Shown here: one piece after another, positions 5,928 through 14,300 of the stretch
Position numbering within the stretch: the first letter of the stretch is position 1
How the letters are laid out: each line of letters opens with the position of its first letter
Translations under genes and position numbers: made by a program
IMG/VR virus record: IMGVR_UViG_3300017719_000004
Location: 1-64,000 of that record
DNA length: 64,000 bases
DNA from: a virus
Lineage: Duplodnaviria > Caudoviricetes
Strand: one strand, 5' to 3'
Notes under the pieces: model-generated
The model's input: only the letters and a program-made list of their open reading frames with translations
Database searches by the model: none
Told to the model about the DNA's origin: nothing

Positions 5928-8419
5928 GAGAAGAAGTCCTCTAAAGTTGCAGTTTTTTCTACAGACCACCCAATAGCATCTAGAATTGTCCTCAAAGGTT
6001 CTAAGAATGCCTTGCTAAATTGAAGATCGTAGTCAACATATCTAGTAATATTTAATTCCTTGGGAAAATCTTGAATGAATGAAATAACATTCTCATGAAT
6101 GATATTCGGTTTCTTCAAATAGCAGAATTTAATCTTTTCACCATTTTGAATGAGCGAATACTTGTTAGTGAGATTCGCTTTCTTAATATAATGATTGTAT
6201 AGAAGAGCTCCACGACAGTGGATTGGTGTTCCCTTAGAATAAATGTCCGAAGAGGATTTATATTTTGCAACATCACTGACAGATCTTGGAAAAGAAATGT
6301 CCTCTGGAGTTAGTTGCTTGAATTTCTTACGGCAGTCATCTATGTAGTCTATCATATTATCTTCTGATCCTGACATCATAATCTTAAAAGAATCTTTAAG
6401 CATTTGACGGCAGGGTGCAGGTGTCGATGACTTGACAGCCTCGATACCCATCACTTTTAATTTTGGTTCAGAGTACTGAACGCCCTCACTGTTCCATACA
6501 TTTAGAATATATCTCTTCTTAGCAGTCCAGATACCGCGATCAGCGATATTCTCCCGCTTCATTTGCATTTTTTGTTCGTATGCTGAGACATAATTCGCCA
6601 GATTTTCATACGACTTATCGATGTATGGCTCCAGCTTGTCTTGACAGATCTTGTCAAGTAACGCCACAACTGCTGCTTTATCGCCAGACTTATTACCAAG
6701 AAATTTAGTAACAAGAGGTCCGAGATTAAGATAAATTGAGTCGGTGTCAGATGCGATAACATAGTCTTCACCATCTGTAGACAAAAGTTTATTTAGATAC
6801 TGATTCATCTTGGTCTCAATCCAGCGAATAGAGACCTGACCAGACAGAGTAATAGCTTCTGCGTTCGCTAATTTGAAGTACCTGAAATATTGATTACCAA
6901 TAGCACCATAAGCAGAGTTAAGAGAAATCTTCTTCGCCATTTGAATGTTGTTACATCTAGCGATTTCCTTTTTAAGTGCTTCAGTAGGCGTCTTCTCATA
7001 CTCCTGCTTGGCTTTGAGCATACGCTTTTTAAAGATGACCCGCTCACCATACATCTTCTCCATCAACTCTGGCAAAAATCCCTTCTTATTTTTACGGAAC
7101 ATAGCACCGTTTGCACAGACGGCATTGTCCTTATACAACTCAAAGTTTATTTCCTCATTAAGAATTTTATCAACAGTTGCTGTTGGATGTTTCTCGTCGA
7201 GGAGGGTCTCTGGAGAGATGTTGTACTGCATAATAAGGTGAGGGTAAAGAGAGTTAAGGTCAAAAGACACAACCCAATCATAAACTCCCGGAATCGGTTC
7301 CTTAACATATGCACCTGCATACTTTTCATCCTTATCAGTTTTTTCTTTGGGAGGAATAACAATACCTTTTTTCTTCAGGTAGTTGTAGATTATAGTATCC
7401 CACATCCTTACCTGATAGAAGACATCATTATAATTTACCTTGGCATCATATGCCATAGTTAATGCTAGCTCGATCAACTTCATCTTGTCCTCAAGACGGT
7501 CTACGAGCTCGACATCGATAATGTTGTATTCTACAAATTTCTGCCAACCATGTGTATAGAAATCTTTAAAGGTATCATACTCAGAGTGGTCAAGTTTTTT
7601 CTGACCGAGTTCTACATTAGCAATATGATCAAGACGATATGATTCCTGATTAGTATAAGTAAATTTCTTATACAGATCAAGATAATCTAACTGAGTAATA
7701 CCACCAATATCATAGAAGACTTGTCTACGACCCTTAATATAAACTTCTTTTTGCGATACTAATCCCCAAGGAGATAACCTTTTAGCAATCTTCTCTCCAA
7801 GAACACGATCAATACGCTTTGCAATAAATGGAATATCGAAAAGCTGAATATTCCAACCGGTAACAACATCAGGTGTATTTTCCATCCACCAGTTGATGAA
7901 AGAACTTAGAAGATCTCGCTCGTTATTGAATTGAATATAGCGAACATTATCTTGCTTGATCTTAAATGGACCTTGCCCCCAAGTTGTGATCTCCTTTGTA
8001 TTATAATCCTGGATTGTAATCAGCAGAATCTCTTGGTCTGCTGCTTCAACATCAGGAAATCCATTTTCAGCACGAGTTTCAATGTCAACAGTAATAAGAC
8101 GAATCTTACTAGCGTCAAATTTAATTTCATCTTGAGGATACTTATCAGAAATATACTGATAGATATACCTTTCATTACCATAGACCTTAAAGTTGTCTAT
8201 CTCACCATAGCTTTTTAAAAACTCCCTACAGTCAGAGACGAAACCAGGTTTAATTGGTTCGACATAATCACCATCGAGAGTTTTATGGTATGTTTTCTTT
8301 TTGGCAGGAACAAATAATGTGGGTTTGTATTTTTCACGAAACTGAATGTACTCACCATTATCATAAGCACGAACGAGGAACTGGTCCCCGATCATTTGTA
8401 CATTAGTGTAAAATTTCAT
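5924..8419 (-). CDS. 43: Family B DNA polymerase (T4 gp43)
   Basis: Exonuclease DIET, SFDLNSLYP, KISLNSAYG, ASDTDS, KKRY motifs; uninterrupted. Confidence 0.98.
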   Translation of the reverse strand: MKFYTNVQMIGDQFLVRAYDNGEYIQFREKYKPTLFVPAKKKTYHKTLDGDYVEPIKPGFVSDCREFLKSYGEIDNFKVYGNERYIYQYISDKYPQDEIKFDASKIRLITVDIETRAENGFPDVEAADQEILLITIQDYNTKEITTWGQGPFKIKQDNVRYIQFNNERDLLSSFINWWMENTPDVVTGWNIQLFDIPFIAKRIDRVLGEKIAKRLSPWGLVSQKEVYIKGRRQVFYDIGGITQLDYLDLYKKFTYTNQESYRLDHIANVELGQKKLDHSEYDTFKDFYTHGWQKFVEYNIIDVELVDRLEDKMKLIELALTMAYDAKVNYNDVFYQVRMWDTIIYNYLKKKGIVIPPKEKTDKDEKYAGAYVKEPIPGVYDWVVSFDLNSLYPHLIMQYNISPETLLDEKHPTATVDKILNEEINFELYKDNAVCANGAMFRKNKKGFLPELMEKMYGERVIFKKRMLKAKQEYEKTPTEALKKEIARCNNIQMAKKISLNSAYGAIGNQYFRYFKLANAEAITLSGQVSIRWIETKMNQYLNKLLSTDGEDYVIASDTDSIYLNLGPLVTKFLGNKSGDKAAVVALLDKICQDKLEPYIDKSYENLANYVSAYEQKMQMKRENIADRGIWTAKKRYILNVWNSEGVQYSEPKLKVMGIEAVKSSTPAPCRQMLKDSFKIMMSGSEDNMIDYIDDCRKKFKQLTPEDISFPRSVSDVAKYKSSSDIYSKGTPIHCRGALLYNHYIKKANLTNKYSLIQNGEKIKFCYLKKPNIIHENVISFIQDFPKELNITRYVDYDLQFSKAFLEPLRTILDAIGWSVEKTATLEDFFS

Positions 8420-8706
8420 TCACTGGTAAGTTCGGTGTATGCTTCGAGAATAAATGTCTCTGGGTTAACTAGAGTTAGAATAGTATCGCTTTGAATTCTA
8501 CACTTCTTATCGGAGGAAATATTCAGCACTTTCCAAGGTGTCAAACGATCCTTGTAGTCTCCATCAAAATCGTCATCTTGAATTACAAACTCATAAGGGT
8601 TTTCTAATTCACAGTCAGGCTCACCAATGTCAGCACCAACTTCCTCAATTCCAGCGATAATACACTTGTAGTCTTCTTTAAATACAATGACTTTAATTTG
8701 TGACAT
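8416..8706 (-). CDS. Hypothetical protein (96 aa)
   Basis: ORF overlaps the gp43 start; it shares an NPY...L.PW pattern with the neighbouring ORF, so they may be paralogues. Confidence 0.75.
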   Translation of the reverse strand: MSQIKVIVFKEDYKCIIAGIEEVGADIGEPDCELENPYEFVIQDDDFDGDYKDRLTPWKVLNISSDKKCRIQSDTILTLVNPETFILEAYTELTSE

Positions 8707-9007
8707 TATCGATTAGCTCCAGGTACATTGACTTGAGATCAGCAACTGGTTCAAAGATAGTTTGAACCGAGTTTGGGTTGACAATAAAGGTTGTCTCTTG
8801 CGTGAGTGGTTGCCAAGTAGCAAGAGATACTTGGGATGTATTTTCTGCGGTCTCTCCTGCATCTTCACTCAGCAACATGGTGGGTTGCATGATAACACGA
8901 TATGGATTGTTGAACATATATTGACGAGCCTTGTCTTCAGGATCAATCAACTCTTTGATGTCAGCAATGATTTGATCATTACCGATAATGGCTACTCTAA
9001 CAGACAT
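8693..9007 (-). CDS. Hypothetical protein (104 aa, MSVRVAIIGND...)
   Basis: ATG at 9007 lies downstream of a sigma70-type promoter and GAGG. The longer track start at 9079 runs through a terminator. Confidence 0.75.
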   Translation of the reverse strand: MSVRVAIIGNDQIIADIKELIDPEDKARQYMFNNPYRVIMQPTMLLSEDAGETAENTSQVSLATWQPLTQETTFIVNPNSVQTIFEPVADLKSMYLELIDNVTN

Positions 9008-9029
9008 AGTATGCTTTTTACCTCTTGGT

Positions 9030-9066
9030 ATTATACCACAAAAATGGGGGGTGAACAACCCCCCGA
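9030..9066 (-). promoter_or_regulatory. hsp20 terminator hairpin overlapping a sigma70-like promoter (TTGTTC-N17-TATAAT, extended -10 TGn)
   Basis: GGGGGG..CCCCCC stem followed by ATTTTT; -10 at 9030-9035, -35 at 9053-9058, 17-nt spacer. Confidence 0.65.
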
Positions 9067-9069
9067 TAT

Positions 9070-9504
9070 TTAGAACCAATCCTTGCGTTGATGATGCTCT
9101 GGAACTATCCTAGCTAGACATATTGAAAGGAGTCCATCCTCAAATTCTACACTCTTCACTTCTACATCCTCAGAGAGCGTCCATACCCTCGTAAAGGACC
9201 TCTGTGCTAGTCCCTTATGCTGATAGGTAGTCTCGGTCTCCTTGTCCTCTTTCTGACCCTCTACAAAGAGTTTGCCATCCTGTGTGTAGACAAACAACTC
9301 TGCCTTTTTAAACCCTGCCAGGGCGATCTCTAGCCTGGACTCTACAGAATTTATGGATACTAGGTTGTAGGGAGGATAGTTAGTAGTGGTCTCATGTAGT
9401 GAGTATAAACGATCAAAGTATTCGTTCATACCAATGCTGTTGCGATGAACACGATCCAAAAATTGGTCAATGTTAGACGCACCATACTTAGTAAGGTCGG
9501 TCAT
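9070..9504 (-). CDS. hsp20: Small heat-shock protein Hsp20
   Basis: YPPYNL, LEIALAGF, HKGLAQRSFTR.W.LSEDVEV..V.FEDGLL (alpha-crystallin domain). Confidence 0.96.
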   Translation of the reverse strand: MTDLTKYGASNIDQFLDRVHRNSIGMNEYFDRLYSLHETTTNYPPYNLVSINSVESRLEIALAGFKKAELFVYTQDGKLFVEGQKEDKETETTYQHKGLAQRSFTRVWTLSEDVEVKSVEFEDGLLSICLARIVPEHHQRKDWF

Positions 9505-9619: not shown

Positions 9620-10654
9620 TCAGTAGTCCGAGATATCTACCAATTTAAAAGAATTAATGTTGTGATTGTCATGGATCTGAGGGATCGCTCCAGCAATAGT
9701 GTATGGTGCAGGATCAGCTACTTTGATCTCTACAGCAGACTGTGCCCTATTTACCATAGCAAATGAAGATGTGTAGTAATACTGGAGGTTTACTGCAAAT
9801 TCAGAAATATACCTCCGAGCTTTAGTACCAGTCTTAGCGTTGGTGTAAAGGATGATGGTTGCTGTGGACTTGTTCTTAGAAAAGTGTGGAAGCAAGTGCT
9901 GACACCATGCCCTCATAGCATAAGTTGGATTGTCAACCGATAGGAGAATATAATCTCCCTTTACATAACCGGCTTTTGCCAACCAAGTTTGCCAATCTTC
10001 ACGACTCCTAACAACAGTGATTCCACCAGATGTACCTTCTTCCAAGACATCATCAAGGATTTTGTTGACAATCTTGGTTATGGCACCTCCACGAGGAGAG
10101 AAGAAGCTCTCAGCTTGCAGTTCATTGTAAACGAGGTCTTCTACTGCAGATCTCTCTGGCAAGCATTCTCCAGCATTAACACAAGCAATCCCTGCCATAA
10201 TAAAATCGTTAATGCATACCCCAGTGGATGCAGGACGCTGCTGACAGGCAAGAGAATTGGAAATGTAGCTAGTGATTGGACTACCGTTGTCATCGTATGA
10301 GAAGATAGCAACAATAATCCACCTCTCTCCAGCACGCTTTGCTGCAAGGATACGAGTCCTACCGTCTCTAGGACGATTGTCAGTACCAATACAAGGGGGG
10401 AAATCGTTATAAAGCCATCCATAGTTAATATATGAAACTTGCATTGCTTCAATCCGAGAGGTATTGTTCTGATCATCCCGGACAGCAAGGTTCCAATAAT
10501 ACTCATCCTCTTCATCGACGGTATCGAGATCAAGGAAAGAAAACTTGATGAATGTTGCGTTTTTTTGCTTAGGCTTGGGTAGGTTCTTTAACTGTGGATT
10601 TTCGAGATCCAGGATATCGCCAAAACCTTTTCTGGTGCGTTCTGTGTTAGTCAT
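9620..10654 (-). CDS. Hypothetical 344-aa protein with a ParB/Sulfiredoxin-like N-terminal motif
   Basis: SY..YGW....PPCI.....RDGRTRILAAKRAG..WIIVAIF matches the ParB/Srx 'DG.xR..A' motif. Confidence 0.6.
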   Translation of the reverse strand: MTNTERTRKGFGDILDLENPQLKNLPKPKQKNATFIKFSFLDLDTVDEEDEYYWNLAVRDDQNNTSRIEAMQVSYINYGWLYNDFPPCIGTDNRPRDGRTRILAAKRAGERWIIVAIFSYDDNGSPITSYISNSLACQQRPASTGVCINDFIMAGIACVNAGECLPERSAVEDLVYNELQAESFFSPRGGAITKIVNKILDDVLEEGTSGGITVVRSREDWQTWLAKAGYVKGDYILLSVDNPTYAMRAWCQHLLPHFSKNKSTATIILYTNAKTGTKARRYISEFAVNLQYYYTSSFAMVNRAQSAVEIKVADPAPYTIAGAIPQIHDNHNINSFKLVDISDY

Positions 10655-10726
10655 TAATTCTTTAGATAAAAATCTACGGTTGTACCGTTAGGTGTCTCGA
10701 TAGCGAAAACTGTTGAGACATTATAT

Positions 10727-10805
10727 TTAGTAGGTTCCTATCGCCGCTACTCCTGAACCTACTAAGGGGAGTACCGCAGTCAAGGTGGTCTCCCTCCCTG
10801 ACCTC
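10727..10805 (-). ncRNA. Structured leader RNA: GNRA hairpin followed by interleaved stems (pseudoknot or switch)
   Basis: GUCAGGG..GG-GAGA-CC..CCUUGAC hairpin. UACUCC/GGAGUA (10768-73/10748-53) interleaves with an 11-bp perfect UUAGUAGGUUC/GAACCUACUAA pairing (10755-65/10727-37). Confidence 0.55.
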
Positions 10806-10808
10806 CAT

Positions 10809-10842
10809 ATTATACACCATTAAAAAAGGGGCGTCAAGCCCC
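10809..10842 (-). promoter_or_regulatory. Sigma70-type promoter TTGACG-N17-TATAAT overlapping terminator GGGGC-TTGAC-GCCCC-T6
   Basis: -35 at 10832-10837, -10 at 10809-10814; hairpin 10828-10842 plus T-tract 10822-10827. Confidence 0.75.
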
Positions 10843-10906
10843 CTATCTACTTTGGTAGCGAATCCGTCGTAGAGAGTCGCGCACGAAAGAGCGACGATCT
10901 ATTTAT
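10822..10906 (-). ncRNA. Candidate ~70-75-nt small RNA between late promoter ATAAATA (10900-10906) and a terminator
   Basis: No convincing ORF; GC-rich; GUCGC..UUUC..GCGAC and CUAC-CAAA-GUAG hairpins; bounded by promoter and terminator. Confidence 0.5.
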
Positions 10907-11346
10907 TAACCTTCTTCGCCTTCAACTTTAACCTTACGACCAATGTTATACTTAGTCTCTAAAGCCCAATTCCCTTTATCTTTGTAGGATAAAACTTTAA
11001 TCTGATTCAAAGGAGCAATATCCTCAATCATTTCAGCCACAACTACAGAAATTAATCCCCAATCAGCAAGGAGTTGTGTAATTCTATTACGGCGTTGAAC
11101 ATCATTAACAGTAAGATTTGCTTTCTTGCCATCAAGAGCAAACAATTCTTTAAAGTGAACAATGAAATATCTACCTTGCTTATGTAAGATATGACAAGAC
11201 TGATATAATTTTTTTTCTTTACGAGATGCAACACCGATTCTAGTCAGAGTTTCTCGCACTTTTAAAAAATCGTCAGGTTCTCCTAGGACAACCTCAATCA
11301 TGTTCTCAGGCGACCACTCAACGGTCGGCTCAATAACGACGCTCAT
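10906..11346 (-). CDS. regA: Translational repressor RegA
   Basis: PDDFLKVRETLTRIGVAS..EKKLYQSCHILHKQGRYFIVHFKELFALDGK. Likely start MSVVIEP at 11346; CTAAATA at 11370-11376. Confidence 0.96.
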   Translation of the reverse strand: MSVVIEPTVEWSPENMIEVVLGEPDDFLKVRETLTRIGVASRKEKKLYQSCHILHKQGRYFIVHFKELFALDGKKANLTVNDVQRRNRITQLLADWGLISVVVAEMIEDIAPLNQIKVLSYKDKGNWALETKYNIGRKVKVEGEEG

Positions 11347-11368
11347 GTCACAAAACAAAAACTTTTTA

Positions 11369-12232
11369 TTATTTAGCTAAACTTCTTTTGATGTCCTCTA
11401 ATGCAGGTTTTAAAGTATCGTATACATTTCTATATGCCATCGTATTAATAGTTCTCTTATACCAAAACTCATCTAACTTACAGTCTTTACCTGTAAAATC
11501 TTCATAGATTCCTAGAAAGACACTAAAGATATCCCATTGACTGTGTGGAAAATATTGTGGAGATAGGCAAACAAAGATATGATCATACTCATAATTACCA
11601 TGATCATATTCTTCTGCCGTAGCAAATCCCCAGTCAGCATACTTACCAACATTATTACAAATAAATCTGTTCACAATACTTCTAGTATCATACTCATCTT
11701 TATCATTATTATGAATCCATGTCATAGCCTTCAATTTTCCTAAAGCATGTAAGTATCCTCCCCAACTACCCTCATCAACTTTCCCATAAGTTTTAGCATA
11801 ATGATATTCAATGAGGTGACATGACAAGAACTGCAACCAAGTGTCCTCATCATCATCATCATTTTTTCCTGATTTATCATGATTAGTGAGTTGATCTAAG
11901 TATGCACCTGCCAGAAAATCATCATGGTGATCAATATTAACAATTTCCAGATCTTCTTTGTCAAGAAGTTCTTCGAGAATATAATCATGATCTAGTCCAA
12001 ATGCAACTGTTGCATTTGGATTTGCATACAGAGCCTTAGTAAAAGTCTCAACCATATAATCAAAACACTTTTCATCTACGATCTCTTCTCTACAATTTAG
12101 ATCAGGATAGGTCTTAAAATAATTTTCCCACTTTGTAAAAGCATGCCACTCATCCCAAAGTTCACCATTTTCATTAGGCCATTTCTCAATAGCAGGAAAA
12201 CAATAATCAACATCAATGCTAAGAACTTTCAT
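11369..12232 (-). CDS. UPF0489/arginase-deacetylase-fold-like metalloprotein
   Basis: VLSIDVDY, HDYI, NIDHHDD, DEGSW and FVCLSPQYFP motifs. Confidence 0.6.
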   Translation of the reverse strand: MKVLSIDVDYCFPAIEKWPNENGELWDEWHAFTKWENYFKTYPDLNCREEIVDEKCFDYMVETFTKALYANPNATVAFGLDHDYILEELLDKEDLEIVNIDHHDDFLAGAYLDQLTNHDKSGKNDDDDEDTWLQFLSCHLIEYHYAKTYGKVDEGSWGGYLHALGKLKAMTWIHNNDKDEYDTRSIVNRFICNNVGKYADWGFATAEEYDHGNYEYDHIFVCLSPQYFPHSQWDIFSVFLGIYEDFTGKDCKLDEFWYKRTINTMAYRNVYDTLKPALEDIKRSLAK

Positions 12233-12606
12233 TTGATACCACCCGTATCCAATTTTTTACGAATAAAGTTTATTTGTTCTGAAGTCAGAATCTTTAAAGC
12301 TTGTTGTGCTTTTTCATTACTATAACCGTAATATTTTTTTACTAACTCAAGATCAACAATCTTGTCTTGCCGCAACCAAGGAGAGAATCTTTTCTTCTTC
12401 CTGATGCTATGTAGTAGGAATTGGTACTGCATATCTTTAGATAAATGAGCGTTCTTATTCATCTCATTTGCAAATAAGATTGCATCCAAATGTCCAGAGA
12501 GACAGCGGTTTATGATGTAAGGAGGATACTTTTTAATATCTTCAGGGTCCTCACTCAGATCTTCTTTGGTGAGGTTAATGGAATTAAGCCAGTCTTTTAA
12601 TTCCAT
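12229..12606 (-). CDS. 62: Clamp loader small subunit (T4 gp62)
   Basis: ELKDWLNSIN..K, YPPYIINRCLS, ANEMN, RFSPW, YYGYSNEKA. Confidence 0.95.
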   Translation of the reverse strand: MELKDWLNSINLTKEDLSEDPEDIKKYPPYIINRCLSGHLDAILFANEMNKNAHLSKDMQYQFLLHSIRKKKRFSPWLRQDKIVDLELVKKYYGYSNEKAQQALKILTSEQINFIRKKLDTGGIK

Positions 12607-14300
12607 AACAAATAATTTCCAATAACGAGATAATCAATATCCATTTTTTTAAAAGAGGAAATGGCATCCTCTGGAGTCTCAATGATTGGTTCTCCACTTT
12701 GATTGAACGAGGTATTCAACAATACTGGTGGTTCAAGTTTAGAAAGAAGTTGATAGATTTTAGCATTCTGTTGCTCATTTACAGTTTGAATTCTACATGA
12801 CTTATCCTTATGAGTAATTGCAGGAAGTTTTTTAGTGATGGAAGTTTGCGAGTACAACATATACGGACTCACAAAACCAGGATCAAAGTACTCACCAACT
12901 TTTTCTTCTAGCATTATACCAGCAAAAGGACGCCAGGTCTCTCTCTTTTTAACCCTATCATTCAGAATATCTTTGTTTTCAGATCTCTTAGGACTCATCA
13001 ACAATGATCTAGATCCCAAAGACCTAGGACCATATTCTGACCTGCCTTGGAACCAACCAACGATCTTATCATCATCCAATTCTTTTGCTAGGAATTCACA
13101 GAGATCATCAAAATTATCATAATGCTTACAATTTTTTTCTTCTGGAACAAAGTCATCATAAGAGTTACCTAGTAGTGCAATGTTATGTGGCAACTCAATA
13201 GTTTCTTTAGATCTATAAACACCCCAAGCTGCTGCACCAAAATGAATTCCAGAGTCATTAGTAAACGGAGGAATATGAATATTACGGAACAATGGTTTCA
13301 GTATAGTATTTGCACATACATTAAGGAAAGTTCCTCCAGCAAAACAATTATCTTCTTCTAGATAGTCTTTTTTTAATTCATGAATAAGATACTCAAGACT
13401 TTTTTCAAACCAAAACTGAACATAGTATGCTTTATCCTCTACAGTTCCCTTCAGATTATTATACAACATTTCATAATCATAGAAATGCACTTCTGGCATT
13501 CCAGTTTCCCAACGATCAATATCAAAATTAGATGTAGGAAACAAGGTAGATATGCATGTGGGAGGTCCTTGCCCTTCTAACAATTTACCATAAGCTGACA
13601 ATCCCATGATCTTACCTTCTTTTGGAGTTACATCAAAGTTTTGAGCAAACTGAATATTTTCTACTACCTCAGGTTTCAATTTAGACTCTTGCTGCATCAA
13701 TTCTTTATGCTTATCATCATAAATCATCTGAGACATATTACAATAGAACTCACCAAATGAGTTCATACCTAGATCACCAGTTCCCCTAAAAAATCTAAAG
13801 ATGCGTTTGCTCTTATCAAAATATCCAATACTATTATTCTCACCACCACGAGGGTGACCACTAGCAAAATCCCAAATCCCACTACCAAGTCCATCAAGAG
13901 TTAAGAAACTACCACTATTGAAAGGTGAAGAAAAGACTGTAGACGCTGCATGGCAAAGATGATGTGACAATAACCAAATCTCAGCATTAGGAAACTGTTC
14001 CTTAATCATCCTACTGCAAGTACCATCTACAAGCTGTTTCTGAAATATATCAGGATAAGCTATAGGGTAACAAACAACATCAATTTCTTCTTTTGTATAT
14101 CCACCAAGAACATATTCAATAGACTTATATGGAAAATTACCGTCATCTTTAATACGAGTCAATCTTTCTTCATTAATGCTTCTAATATGAATTCCATTGA
14201 TAAACAGAGTTGCTCCTGCATCATGAATATAAGTATCACTTTTGTCAAAAAGATTTGCATCCCAATCTAAGGCACCATAGATTCCAATAATTTTCATCAA
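12597..14300 (-). CDS. Carbamoyltransferase (NodU/CmcH/TobZ family)
   Basis: HDAGA, EERLTRIK, HHLCHAAS, DGLG, EGKIMGLSAYG, AGGTFLN, NDSG, GWFQGRSEYGPRSLGSRS, LNTSFN..GEPI. Confidence 0.92.
   Translation of the reverse strand: MMKIIGIYGALDWDANLFDKSDTYIHDAGATLFINGIHIRSINEERLTRIKDDGNFPYKSIEYVLGGYTKEEIDVVCYPIAYPDIFQKQLVDGTCSRMIKEQFPNAEIWLLSHHLCHAASTVFSSPFNSGSFLTLDGLGSGIWDFASGHPRGGENNSIGYFDKSKRIFRFFRGTGDLGMNSFGEFYCNMSQMIYDDKHKELMQQESKLKPEVVENIQFAQNFDVTPKEGKIMGLSAYGKLLEGQGPPTCISTLFPTSNFDIDRWETGMPEVHFYDYEMLYNNLKGTVEDKAYYVQFWFEKSLEYLIHELKKDYLEEDNCFAGGTFLNVCANTILKPLFRNIHIPPFTNDSGIHFGAAAWGVYRSKETIELPHNIALLGNSYDDFVPEEKNCKHYDNFDDLCEFLAKELDDDKIVGWFQGRSEYGPRSLGSRSLLMSPKRSENKDILNDRVKKRETWRPFAGIMLEEKVGEYFDPGFVSPYMLYSQTSITKKLPAITHKDKSCRIQTVNEQQNAKIYQLLSKLEPPVLLNTSFNQSGEPIIETPEDAISSFKKMDIDYLVIGNYLLWN

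Follow-up and report, generated by a model that had tools for sequence, protein, structure and literature searches.

Marine cyanophages shape Earth's most abundant photosynthetic cells and, to our knowledge, few non-coding RNAs are known from them. The available part of one source lists CfrI, PhotoRC-II, wcaG, manA, glnA and abiF among cyanophage non-coding RNAs and notes the abiF motif in cyanophage S-CREM1 (PMC9964418). A second source describes the abiF motif as an antitoxin RNA that acts in trans and binds the toxin, as shown in C. difficile (PMC12373285). Theta ribozymes are described in excerpt as HDV-like RNAs of gut phages that adjoin tRNAs, with L4, J1/2 and J4/2 named as theta/HDV-like parts (PMC10879173). 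The accessible text on PeSLs presents them as stem-loops overlapping or lying just upstream of sigma-70 early promoters of T4-like phages, and links them to modular shuffling (PMC4122927). The T4 RNAs rnaC and rnaD (species 1 and 2) are small stable RNAs of 119 and 139 nt which lie downstream of tRNA-Arg with a 1-nt gap; because they are packed against this tRNA in the tRNA transcription unit, they are presumably excised by the tRNA-processing enzymes. The T4 gene 32 leader consists of a compact H-type pseudoknot at the transcript 5′ end followed by an A/U-rich spacer. In MALAT1/mascRNA, RNase P cuts at a tRNA-like structure and so makes the 3′ end of the upstream RNA, which is protected by a multi-strand structure. 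HDV-like ribozymes display a P3 hairpin with its L3 loop between the P2 5′ and P1 3′ strands, and a P4/J4/2 region that holds the catalytic C.

The DNA analysed here, referred to as the window, is a stretch of 64,000 nucleotides that forms part of an 82.6-kb record, approximately 43% complete, from a T4-like cyanomyovirus. Synechococcus phages S-T4, S-SM2 and S-SKS1 display approximately 77% identity to the core genes of this phage. The minus strand of the 251-nt gap separating regA from a 344-aa ORF contains an element that is apparently an undescribed small pseudoknotted RNA of marine cyanophages. None of the Rfam 15 covariance models reached its gathering score in the whole window, and at E ≤10 the region 10600-10900 returned only SNORD39 (18.2 bits vs 35) and Bp1_162 (14.7 bits vs 50), both chance-level. 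Similarly, in the 32 related loci scanned the element is free of overlap with Rfam families, the Rfam tRNA model does not match it, no cloverleaf is recognised in it by ARAGORN and no tRNA gene is found by the same program in the window. The first-pass annotation of the sequence had matched it to none of the glnA, Downstream-peptide, wcaG, hammerhead, twister, pistol and HDV consensus structures. A description of the motif was found neither in Rfam 15 nor in the literature searched, supplements and most subscription journals being outside reach.

The orphan structured RNAs manA and wcaG (RF01745, RF01761) of T4-like cyanophages occupy the same neighbourhoods but differ from the element by model, and neither overlaps it in the 32 loci scanned; manA RNA lies between two tRNAs with 1-nt gaps in four of five matches (L001, L004, L023 and L047). 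The abiF-motif RNA (RF03085) was found in 3 of the 32 related loci (L032, L045 and L064), one gene away from the element, where it has its own promoter and lies about 9 nt upstream of tRNA-Tyr. This order of promoter, RNA and tRNA in the three loci is the layout of the element itself. However, RF03085 matches neither the element nor any other part of the 82.6-kb record, the L064 ORFs tested include no Abi_2 gene as toxin partner, and neither Abi_2 nor another toxin family was found in the tested ORFs neighbouring the element. The element differs from type III antitoxin RNAs in being single-copy and lacking tandem repeats. In contrast to T4 rnaC and rnaD, with which it has no sequence likeness by eye, it lies upstream of the tRNA and possesses its own promoter and a pseudoknot. 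With theta ribozymes, as far as the excerpt describes them, it shares a phage origin, interleaved helices and a position beside tRNAs. Nevertheless, a single A stands in place of P3/L3 and a 10-nt linker in place of P4, and it is the 3′ end of the element that abuts the tRNA, whereas in theta ribozymes the cleavage site, at the 5′ end, lies within approximately 5 nt of the tRNA (PMC10879173, in part). The overlap of the regA terminator with the −35 hexamer in the window has the PeSL layout but covers only DNA upstream of the RNA. PeSLs, in the accessible text, are multi-copy DNA cassettes ending in a Shine-Dalgarno sequence and a start codon, of which a transcribed P0 hairpin and pseudoknot are not part, while the element is single-copy. 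The T4 gene 32 leader pseudoknot resembles the tRNA-less copies of the element that stand ahead of an ORF but belongs to a single gene and is linked to the protein of that gene, whereas the element precedes tRNAs and unrelated genes. MALAT1/mascRNA is eukaryotic with a long upstream RNA, and for the element release by RNase P is suggested by geometry alone.

Covariation and architecture of the pseudoknot

In a single sequence the 11-bp helix is no more than chance would produce. Perfect inverted repeats of 11 bp whose loop does not exceed 40 nt number 2 in the window compared with a simulated mean of 0.9, and at least 2 such repeats occurred in 26 of 100 simulated windows (first-order Markov). 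The fold of the element has a z-score of −2.61, with 3 of 200 shuffles folding equally well. Homologues were located through a distant blastn search with a 131-nt query, which detected the 50-nt core in 61 phage records, 59 of them from cyanophages or marine single-cell viruses; 2 matches to Pectobacterium (E = 5) were rejected as chance. The core is located in intergenic DNA, at differing loci in differing phages. A motif scan of IMG/VR returned at least 120 contigs and, together with the window and 7 isolates, these form an instance set of at least 128 members with at least 115 unique 81-nt versions. Alignment A2 comprises 86 unique cores among the matches listed, and base pairs were counted on it for the structure ..[[.[[[[[[.....(((((((((.]]]]]].]].......))))))))).

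The 86 cores of A2, again among the matches listed, display standard pairs in 99.6% of 1417 pair cells. Both sides have changed in 10 of the 17 pairs (238 cells), although three S2 columns mix two length classes and some of the double changes there reflect register and not substitution. A gap-free count of S2 from the helix end finds positions 1–9 paired in 98–108 of 108 copies. The covariation score of A2 is 0.480 vs 0.194 in shuffles, a value reached by none of 500 shuffles, and sliding the partners by 1–3 columns reduces pairing to only 14–50%. The two helices are equally strict (99.7% and 99.5% paired), and each of the six S1 pairs is formed in 85–86 of the 86 cores through up to six standard pair types. 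S1 is recovered independently by RNAalifold, while S2 and the 5′ hairpin P0 are recovered by single-sequence folding. Pairing is also kept in the 30 tRNA-less unique cores among the matches listed, with 473 of 480 cells paired through several pair types. G-U pairs are frequent in A2, amounting to 27 of 86 at one S1 pair, so the constraint acts on the RNA of this strand. Comparative pairing and compensatory change thus indicate that both helices are selected at the RNA level, and the element is almost certainly a real, selected, pseudoknotted RNA family. A coding explanation was rejected, since the cores measure 49, 50 or 51 nt, lengths that are not separated by multiples of 3, and the substitutions track pairing.

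Two interleaved helices of H-type topology had been proposed on the minus strand at 10727-10781 by the first-pass annotation. Both the string and the positions are exact, and the comparison confirms the two helices through compensatory change in each and through G-U pairs that are valid only on this strand. S2 forms, as described, 11 perfect pairs in the window, where it encloses a 17-nt loop. In the family, however, S2 is typically 9 bp long (77 of 108 copies), so that the two outer U-A pairs of the window are extras and L1 is effectively 4 nt long (CCUU). The earlier objection that a 2-nt L1 would be too short to span S2 does not hold for these dimensions. The proposed extension of S1 by CUGC/GCGG across a GG bulge was in the wrong register, as covariation and RNAalifold both pair across a G.G mismatch: in the window C10776 pairs with G10745 and G10775 with C10746, while G10774 faces G10747. 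The corresponding columns 3–35 of A2 are C-G in 86 of 86 cores and columns 4–34 are G-C in 73 and U-A in 13 of 86, and RNAalifold likewise joins the G of UGCGg to the C of GCGG. The mismatch between S1 and its extension is G.G in 101, A.G in 6 and C-G in 1 of 108 copies.

About 30 bases of the element are invariant in A2. They cluster at the helix junction, which involves the CC/GG of S1, the single A and the GUUC/GAAC of S2, and further invariant positions are found in CC(U) and in G-N-GG-C-N-AUAG. The CC of L1, at 10767-10766 on the minus strand of the window, is present in 108 of 108 copies, and the linker reads CGATAG in 95, CTATAG in 12 and CAATAG in 1 of the 108. The window copy carries every invariant base of A2 and the full family arrangement, namely P0 abutting UGC, S1 with its G.G mismatch, CC, S2 with GUUC/GAAC, the A, and G-N-GG-C-N-AUAG. 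The purine-rich linker pointed out by the first-pass annotation is near-invariant, S1 is paired in 85–86 of 86 cores, and copies in other phages, for which that annotation had proposed a search, occupy at least 128 loci of cyanophages (86 unique cores). L1 is longer by 1–2 nt in the A2 class with an inserted S2 pair. We read the element from these alignments as a compact stacked H-type pseudoknot, a two-state fold appearing less likely. The 5′-CUU of L1 would run parallel to the 5′-GAA of S2, and the two could possibly form major-groove triples.

Promoter, surroundings and distribution

The complete unit is a near-consensus sigma-70 promoter followed by P0, at the base of which the start is predicted, and the H-type pseudoknot; P0 and the promoter had both been missed in the earlier description. 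Among the matches listed, a sigma-70 promoter lies upstream in 100 of the 114 unique copies with enough upstream sequence, matching at least 10 of 12 promoter positions in 99 of the 100, and the G that opens P0 is the 7th base past the −10 hexamer in 98 of these 100 promoter-bearing copies. Some of the remaining 14 copies display an extended −10 element alone, and approximately 5 lack a visible promoter and occupy the 3′ end of a CDS. From this promoter geometry, the base of P0 is the predicted start of the transcript. Neither the sequence nor the length of P0 (13–52 nt) is constant, yet its pairing is kept, and its loop is usually of the GNRA type. A full promoter intervenes even where another tRNA (tRNA-Tyr) ends directly upstream.

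The features of the window locus are collected in Table 1. The first G of P0 is here also the 7th base past the −10 hexamer and hence the predicted transcription start. The loop of the regA terminator hairpin (10844-10826) contains the −35 hexamer of the promoter of the element, an overlap that recurs by eye across many element loci. Approximately 150 nt of structured RNA separate the promoter from the ATG of the 344-aa ORF, which belongs to no Pfam or PHROG family and is thus an ORFan. The copy of the window has no tRNA and is followed by an extra hairpin and a terminator-like site ahead of the ORFan; the extra hairpin is specific to this context, with no conserved counterpart at the other loci. 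If the terminator-like hairpin is used, the RNA of the window would measure approximately 135 nt (10802 to ~10668). Elsewhere in the window the linker has no complement, and an antisense target was therefore not found there.

Table 1 Features of the element, its promoter and its neighbours in the window.
Feature	Position	Strand	Remarks
regA	10906-11358		upstream of the element; PF01818, E 5e-45
regA terminator hairpin	10826..10844	minus	GGGGGC..GCCCC, 7 pairs, then T-run
Sigma-70-type promoter	10809..10837	minus	TTGACG-17-TATAAT, 11/12 matches
P0, 5′ hairpin	10779..10802	minus	GTCAGGG..(inner GG-GAGA-CC, GNRA-type loop)..CCTTGAC; single-sequence fold
Junction UGCGG	10774..10778	minus	covariation, RNAalifold
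S1 5′ strand UACUCC (TACTCC)	10768..10773	minus	pairs with GGAGUA
L1 CCUU	10764..10767	minus	the two U can also lengthen the window S2 to 11 bp
S2 5′ strand, full 11 nt TTAGTAGGTTC	10765-10755	minus	pairs with GAACCTACTAA
S2 5′ strand, family 9-bp core AGUAGGUUC	10755..10763	minus	inner GUUC invariant
L2, one invariant A	10754..10754	minus	between S2 5′ and S1 3′ strands
S1 3′ strand GGAGUA (GGAGTA)	10748..10753	minus	pairs with UACUCC
Linker GCGG CGAUAG, GCGGCGATAG	10738..10747	minus	L3 = G10744 + CGAUAG
S2 3′ strand GAACCTACTAA = GAACCUACU(AA)	10727..10737	minus	model R1 match
Extra hairpin GUCUC..GAGAC	10694..10719	minus	in MFE and centroid folds
Terminator-like hairpin ACGGUACAACCGU, then U-run AGAUUUUUAU	10666..10688	minus	putative function
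344-aa ORF	9620..10654	minus	ATG at 10654; reached by read-through alone
DUF6561 paralogs	8693-9079 and 8416-8706		downstream in the window

The dominant downstream partner of the element is a tRNA gene, which begins 2–4 nt past S2, or 8–12 nt past the last fixed base of the motif, in 83 of the 128 copies among the matches listed. This tRNA is tRNA-Arg(UCU) in 72 and tRNA-Pro(UGG) in 11 of these 128 and is usually the first of an array that continues with Gly, Asn or Thr. The other 45 of the 128 loci include several that are truncated by contig ends, of which two still contain the beginning of a tRNA and two a tRNA remnant beside an inserted ORF. The tRNA-less copies precede DUF6561 genes (10 copies), purM (in P-SSM2), a Phd-like antitoxin, a tryptophan-halogenase-like gene and small membrane-like ORFs. 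In about 20 of the 30 tRNA-less copies the ORF starts 12–30 nt past S2 after an A/U-rich spacer with no visible terminator, while at S-SKS1-type loci a second complete promoter directly follows the element. A Phd-like antitoxin ORF is located within 700 nt in 6 of 115 instances among the matches listed. The neighbourhood has a counter-defence flavour through the abiF RNA and the Phd-like antitoxin, which is only an association.

Covariance model R1, built for the family, was used for the copy counts. In the window it aligns over its full length to a single copy at 10778-10729 (73.2 bits, E 4.5e-16), which is also the only copy in the whole 82.6-kb record. Exactly one copy was detected in each of 5 complete genomes chosen for carrying the element and one in S-SM2, making it single-copy in 6 of 6 complete carrier genomes. 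R1 finds no element in S-T4, S-PRM1, S-CAM9 or Syn1, so that 1 of 5 complete genomes picked without regard to it has one. By these counts, T4-like cyanophages carry the element as an accessory in single copy. When 185,579 genomes of prokaryote species were scanned for the exact pattern, 38 matches were returned, a number of the order that we estimate by chance (approximately 70; 17 fixed bases, 596 Gb, both strands). The full motif is present in only 3 of the 38, all on short MAG contigs; no cyanobacterium is among these full-motif matches, and a host counterpart was not found in the genomes scanned. Two RNA libraries of the same study yielded contigs over 10708-10775, perhaps through DNA carry-over or related phages. 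These contigs do not cover the 170 nt before or the 135 nt after this interval, which is uninformative, and contigs of this type cannot reveal transcript ends, strand or level; as a sign of expression they provide a weak hint.

A DUF6561 gene follows the element in 10 of the 30 tRNA-less copies among the matches listed, and two DUF6561 paralogs are located downstream in the window. The AF2 model of the 8416-8706 protein (pLDDT 74.7, pTM 0.67) matches the Sm/LSm-like structure 3BY7 (E 1.6e-4, TM 0.68–0.84), which is followed by many Sm proteins. The DUF6561 proteins are a candidate Sm-like partner of the RNA, on which co-occurrence is uninformative. All 10 complete cyanomyovirus genomes (10 of 10) contain the family, with or without the element, whereas the RNA was detected in 1 of the 5 that were picked irrespective of it. 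The two are therefore not linked phyletically, and their adjacency may reflect synteny.

Function of the element

We give about even chances to the element being a stand-alone small RNA gene, the product of which would be freed by RNase P or a terminator and act in trans as a folded particle. Host sigma-70 RNA polymerase would start from the near-consensus early promoter at the first G of P0, and the transcript would fold into an H-type pseudoknot in which S1 comprises 6 pairs, the G.G mismatch and 2 further pairs. S2 would contribute 9 pairs, with L1 formed by CCU(U), L2 by the A and L3 by G-CGAUAG. Cleavage by RNase P at the 5′ end of the tRNA would then free an RNA of approximately 70–80 nt, with a 5′ triphosphate end within P0 and a 3′ end 2–4 nt past S2, so that both ends would be placed against helices. 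In the window, transcription would either stop at the terminator-like site, some 60 nt farther downstream, or continue into the ORFan. Release by RNase P is proposed by analogy with other RNAs of tRNA arrays, such as manA, abiF and T4 rnaC/rnaD, and the product would presumably be stable. The folded RNA would itself be the trans-acting product, most likely binding a protein, because the active part would be a conserved fold and not a single-stranded seed; it might, for example, serve as a decoy. The covariation, the one copy per genome, the own promoter, the variable downstream partner and a fold that is kept without a tRNA all count for an RNA gene, as do the abiF-motif and manA RNAs, which are placed likewise in these arrays, and the weak hint of expression. 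Against it, the ~20 tRNA-less copies ahead of an ORF are formally 5′ UTRs for which a role in cis is equally natural, a single copy is also compatible with a leader that serves one tRNA operon, and the 2–4 nt spacing to the tRNA may only mirror the compactness of phage tRNA arrays. The window contains no complementary target and no host counterpart was found among the genomes scanned, which also count against a trans-acting RNA gene.

A cis-acting 5′ leader, in which hairpin and pseudoknot protect, insulate or help process the RNA behind them, has precedents among 5′ stabilisers, for example the leader of ompA and the leader pseudoknot of T4 gene 32. Predicted transcripts always have the element at their very 5′ end, it heads tRNA arrays in which tRNA-Arg is usually first, and some 20 tRNA-less copies stand across an A/U-rich spacer 12–30 nt ahead of a start codon, all in line with such a leader. 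However, a general stabiliser or insulator would be expected in several copies and each genome has one, despite its many early promoters. In addition, a tRNA cut from its leader by RNase P is stable by itself, the second promoter of S-SKS1-type loci makes the downstream gene independent of the element, and the ~30 invariant bases exceed the needs of a passive block. We therefore hold the cis-acting leader to be possible but rather unlikely. Control of the downstream gene by a small ligand bound to the pseudoknot, the riboswitch suggested by the first-pass annotation, would agree with the compact H-type pseudoknot, its many invariant unpaired bases and its 5′ position, features comparable to those of the SAM-II and preQ1-II riboswitch classes. 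This is made very unlikely by the lack, at most loci, of an adjoining terminator or a platform that sequesters the Shine-Dalgarno sequence, and by the absence of a match to any Rfam riboswitch. The downstream partners argue in the same direction, as the main one is the tRNA that follows 83 of the 128 copies among the matches listed, and the others are unrelated genes with no common pathway.

S1 could form first during transcription and then be replaced by S2, acting as a timer or switch, and it is indeed S2 alone that constitutes the MFE fold of the single sequence, with loops that by our geometric estimate are near the minimum for a pseudoknot of 9 + 9 layers. Nevertheless, both helices are equally strict, the invariant bases lie at the S1/S2 junction as expected of stacked helices, L1 gains 1–2 nt where S2 has an inserted pair, and a downstream read-out for a switch was not seen; such an alternation of helices is judged quite improbable. 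A ribozyme, either self-cleaving in the manner of theta or performing other chemistry at the 5′ triphosphate end, is suggested by the interleaved helices, by unpaired bases of very high conservation and by proximity to phage tRNAs, as the available text describes for theta ribozymes (PMC10879173). Self-cleavage, also raised by the first-pass annotation, meets the difficulty that P0 opens with the predicted transcription start, which would leave nothing 5′ to cleave off. There is also a single A between the S2 5′ and S1 3′ strands with no P3/L3 and no P4, no match to the HDV, hatchet, pistol, twister or hammerhead models or to any other Rfam ribozyme, and a contact with the tRNA through the 3′ end and not through a cleavage site as in the theta excerpt. 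A ribozyme thus appears highly improbable. The probability that the element acts solely at the DNA level, as a recombination cassette or protein operator, or is a chance inverted repeat is close to negligible. The promoter and terminator part resembles PeSL cassettes, as the accessible text presents them (PMC4122927), the loci differ among phages and the 11-bp repeat alone is within chance. However, the many G-U pairs (27 of the 86 cores at one S1 pair) would turn into A-C mismatches in a cruciform or on the opposite strand, compensatory changes affect two interleaved helices, and the single copy contrasts with PeSLs.

Returning to the small RNA gene, a more far-reaching and decidedly doubtful extension is that tRNA arrays serve as launch pads for effector RNAs, or that the invariant junction forms a new ribozyme or aptamer active site. 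Under the effector proposal, an RNA of a new class, transcribed early from the consensus promoter and trimmed by host RNase P to a particle that resists nucleases, would inactivate a protein of the host, such as a defence toxin or ribonuclease, and the abiF-motif RNA one gene away in some phages would be a stolen antitoxin.

The element constitutes a well-populated family, with at least 115 unique 81-nt copies, textbook covariation and about 30 invariant bases. Its architecture is unusual, as a promoter is followed by a hairpin from the first transcribed base, as predicted, then by the pseudoknot and then by a tRNA. With approximately 55–76 nt, the RNA has a size that permits direct structural and biochemical study. 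If release by RNase P is confirmed, phages would be using tRNA processing to make other small RNAs, and the manA RNA located between tRNAs would be re-framed as a processed stable RNA and not a cis-regulator.

manA RNA and its tRNA surroundings

The tRNA arrays of the related cyanophage loci (numbered with the prefix L) house manA RNA, with five RF01745 matches detected (table) and tRNA genes lying only 1–2 nt off either side in four of the five. RF01745 is classed as a cis-regulatory motif. The layout of the arrays suggests that manA RNA is a stable RNA released by processing, not an element of a 5′ UTR. Within these arrays manA RNA comes immediately behind the tRNA-Arg that lies downstream of the element, the P0 hairpin and H-type pseudoknot RNA. 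In P-SSM2 manA RNA is flanked by regA and purL.

The tRNA that accompanies the element is disrupted or absent at some loci. In L044 the tRNA-Arg 3′ of the element is cut off past the D-arm, while L095 has no tRNA at all downstream, and in both an ORF of 153–155 aa beginning MNSC..C..C comes next instead. This ORF has the look of mobile DNA inserted in the tRNA gene and may encode a homing endonuclease. A module made of a hairpin and the promoter TTGACT-17-TATAAT, with a phrog_552 gene (MALTEKFK...) behind it, is located 3′ of tRNA-Pro in L025, L029, L103 and L108. The same module and gene directly abut the element in S-SKS1-type loci (about 1555–1610 in L002, S-SKS1). It looks as if the tRNA between element and module has been lost or gained across phages.

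Gene order around regA

In the loop of the regA terminator hairpin (10826–10844) sits the −35 hexamer belonging to the promoter that follows (10809–10837), a composite similar to PeSL, the terminator/promoter stem-loop cassette of T4-like phages. Many Prochlorococcus-phage-like loci repeat this layout 5′ of the element. In the window regA is bracketed by two family-less ORFs, the larger downstream and the 287-aa ORF separating regA from the gp62-like clamp-loader gene; the gp62-like gene and regA are neighbours in S-SM2, S-T4 and Syn1. A carbamoyltransferase gene lies immediately upstream of the gp62-like gene, within the replication gene block. The window also carries two tandem DUF6561 paralogs, a family found at 2–3 copies per genome in all ten complete cyanomyovirus genomes checked. 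The AF2 model of the 96-aa paralog matches 3BY7, an Sm/LSm-like protein, along with numerous Sm proteins.

Coordinates of RNA motifs and protein-coding genes
Feature	Location	Positions	Strand	Remarks
manA RNA (RF01745)	L001	2662-2872		Rfam model match
manA RNA (RF01745)	L004	1633-1843		Rfam model match
manA RNA (RF01745)	L023	76-289	minus	Rfam model match
manA RNA (RF01745)	L047	3782-3991	minus	Rfam model match
manA RNA (RF01745)	L003	290-487		Rfam model match
abiF-motif RNA (RF03085)	L064	2577-2613	minus	model match
abiF-motif RNA (RF03085)	L032	2554-2590	minus	model match
abiF-motif RNA (RF03085)	L045	836-872	minus	model match
DUF6561/phrog_483/phrog_431 paralog	window	8416-8706	minus	96 aa
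DUF6561/phrog_483/phrog_431 paralog	window	8693-9079	minus	tandem with 8416-8706 copy
ORF, 344 aa	window	9620-10654	minus	no Pfam or PHROG family
ORF, 287 aa	window	11369-12232	minus	no Pfam or PHROG family
Carbamoyltransferase, 567 aa	window	12597-14300	minus	PF02543 and PF16861

Antitoxin-like neighbours

The first downstream gene is a Phd/YefM-like antitoxin ORF (phrog_375) in 6 of the 115 unique versions of the element, placed after tRNA-Pro in L006, L065 and L077 and immediately 3′ of the element in L050, L078 and L101. The tRNA-Tyr leader of L064, L032 and L045 contains an abiF-motif RNA (42.6–55.2 bits) with a dedicated TTGACA-17-TACAAT promoter upstream. The tested ORFs of L064 yielded no Abi_2 toxin gene. 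The abiF-motif RNA of these cyanophage loci may act as a phage-borne decoy antitoxin.
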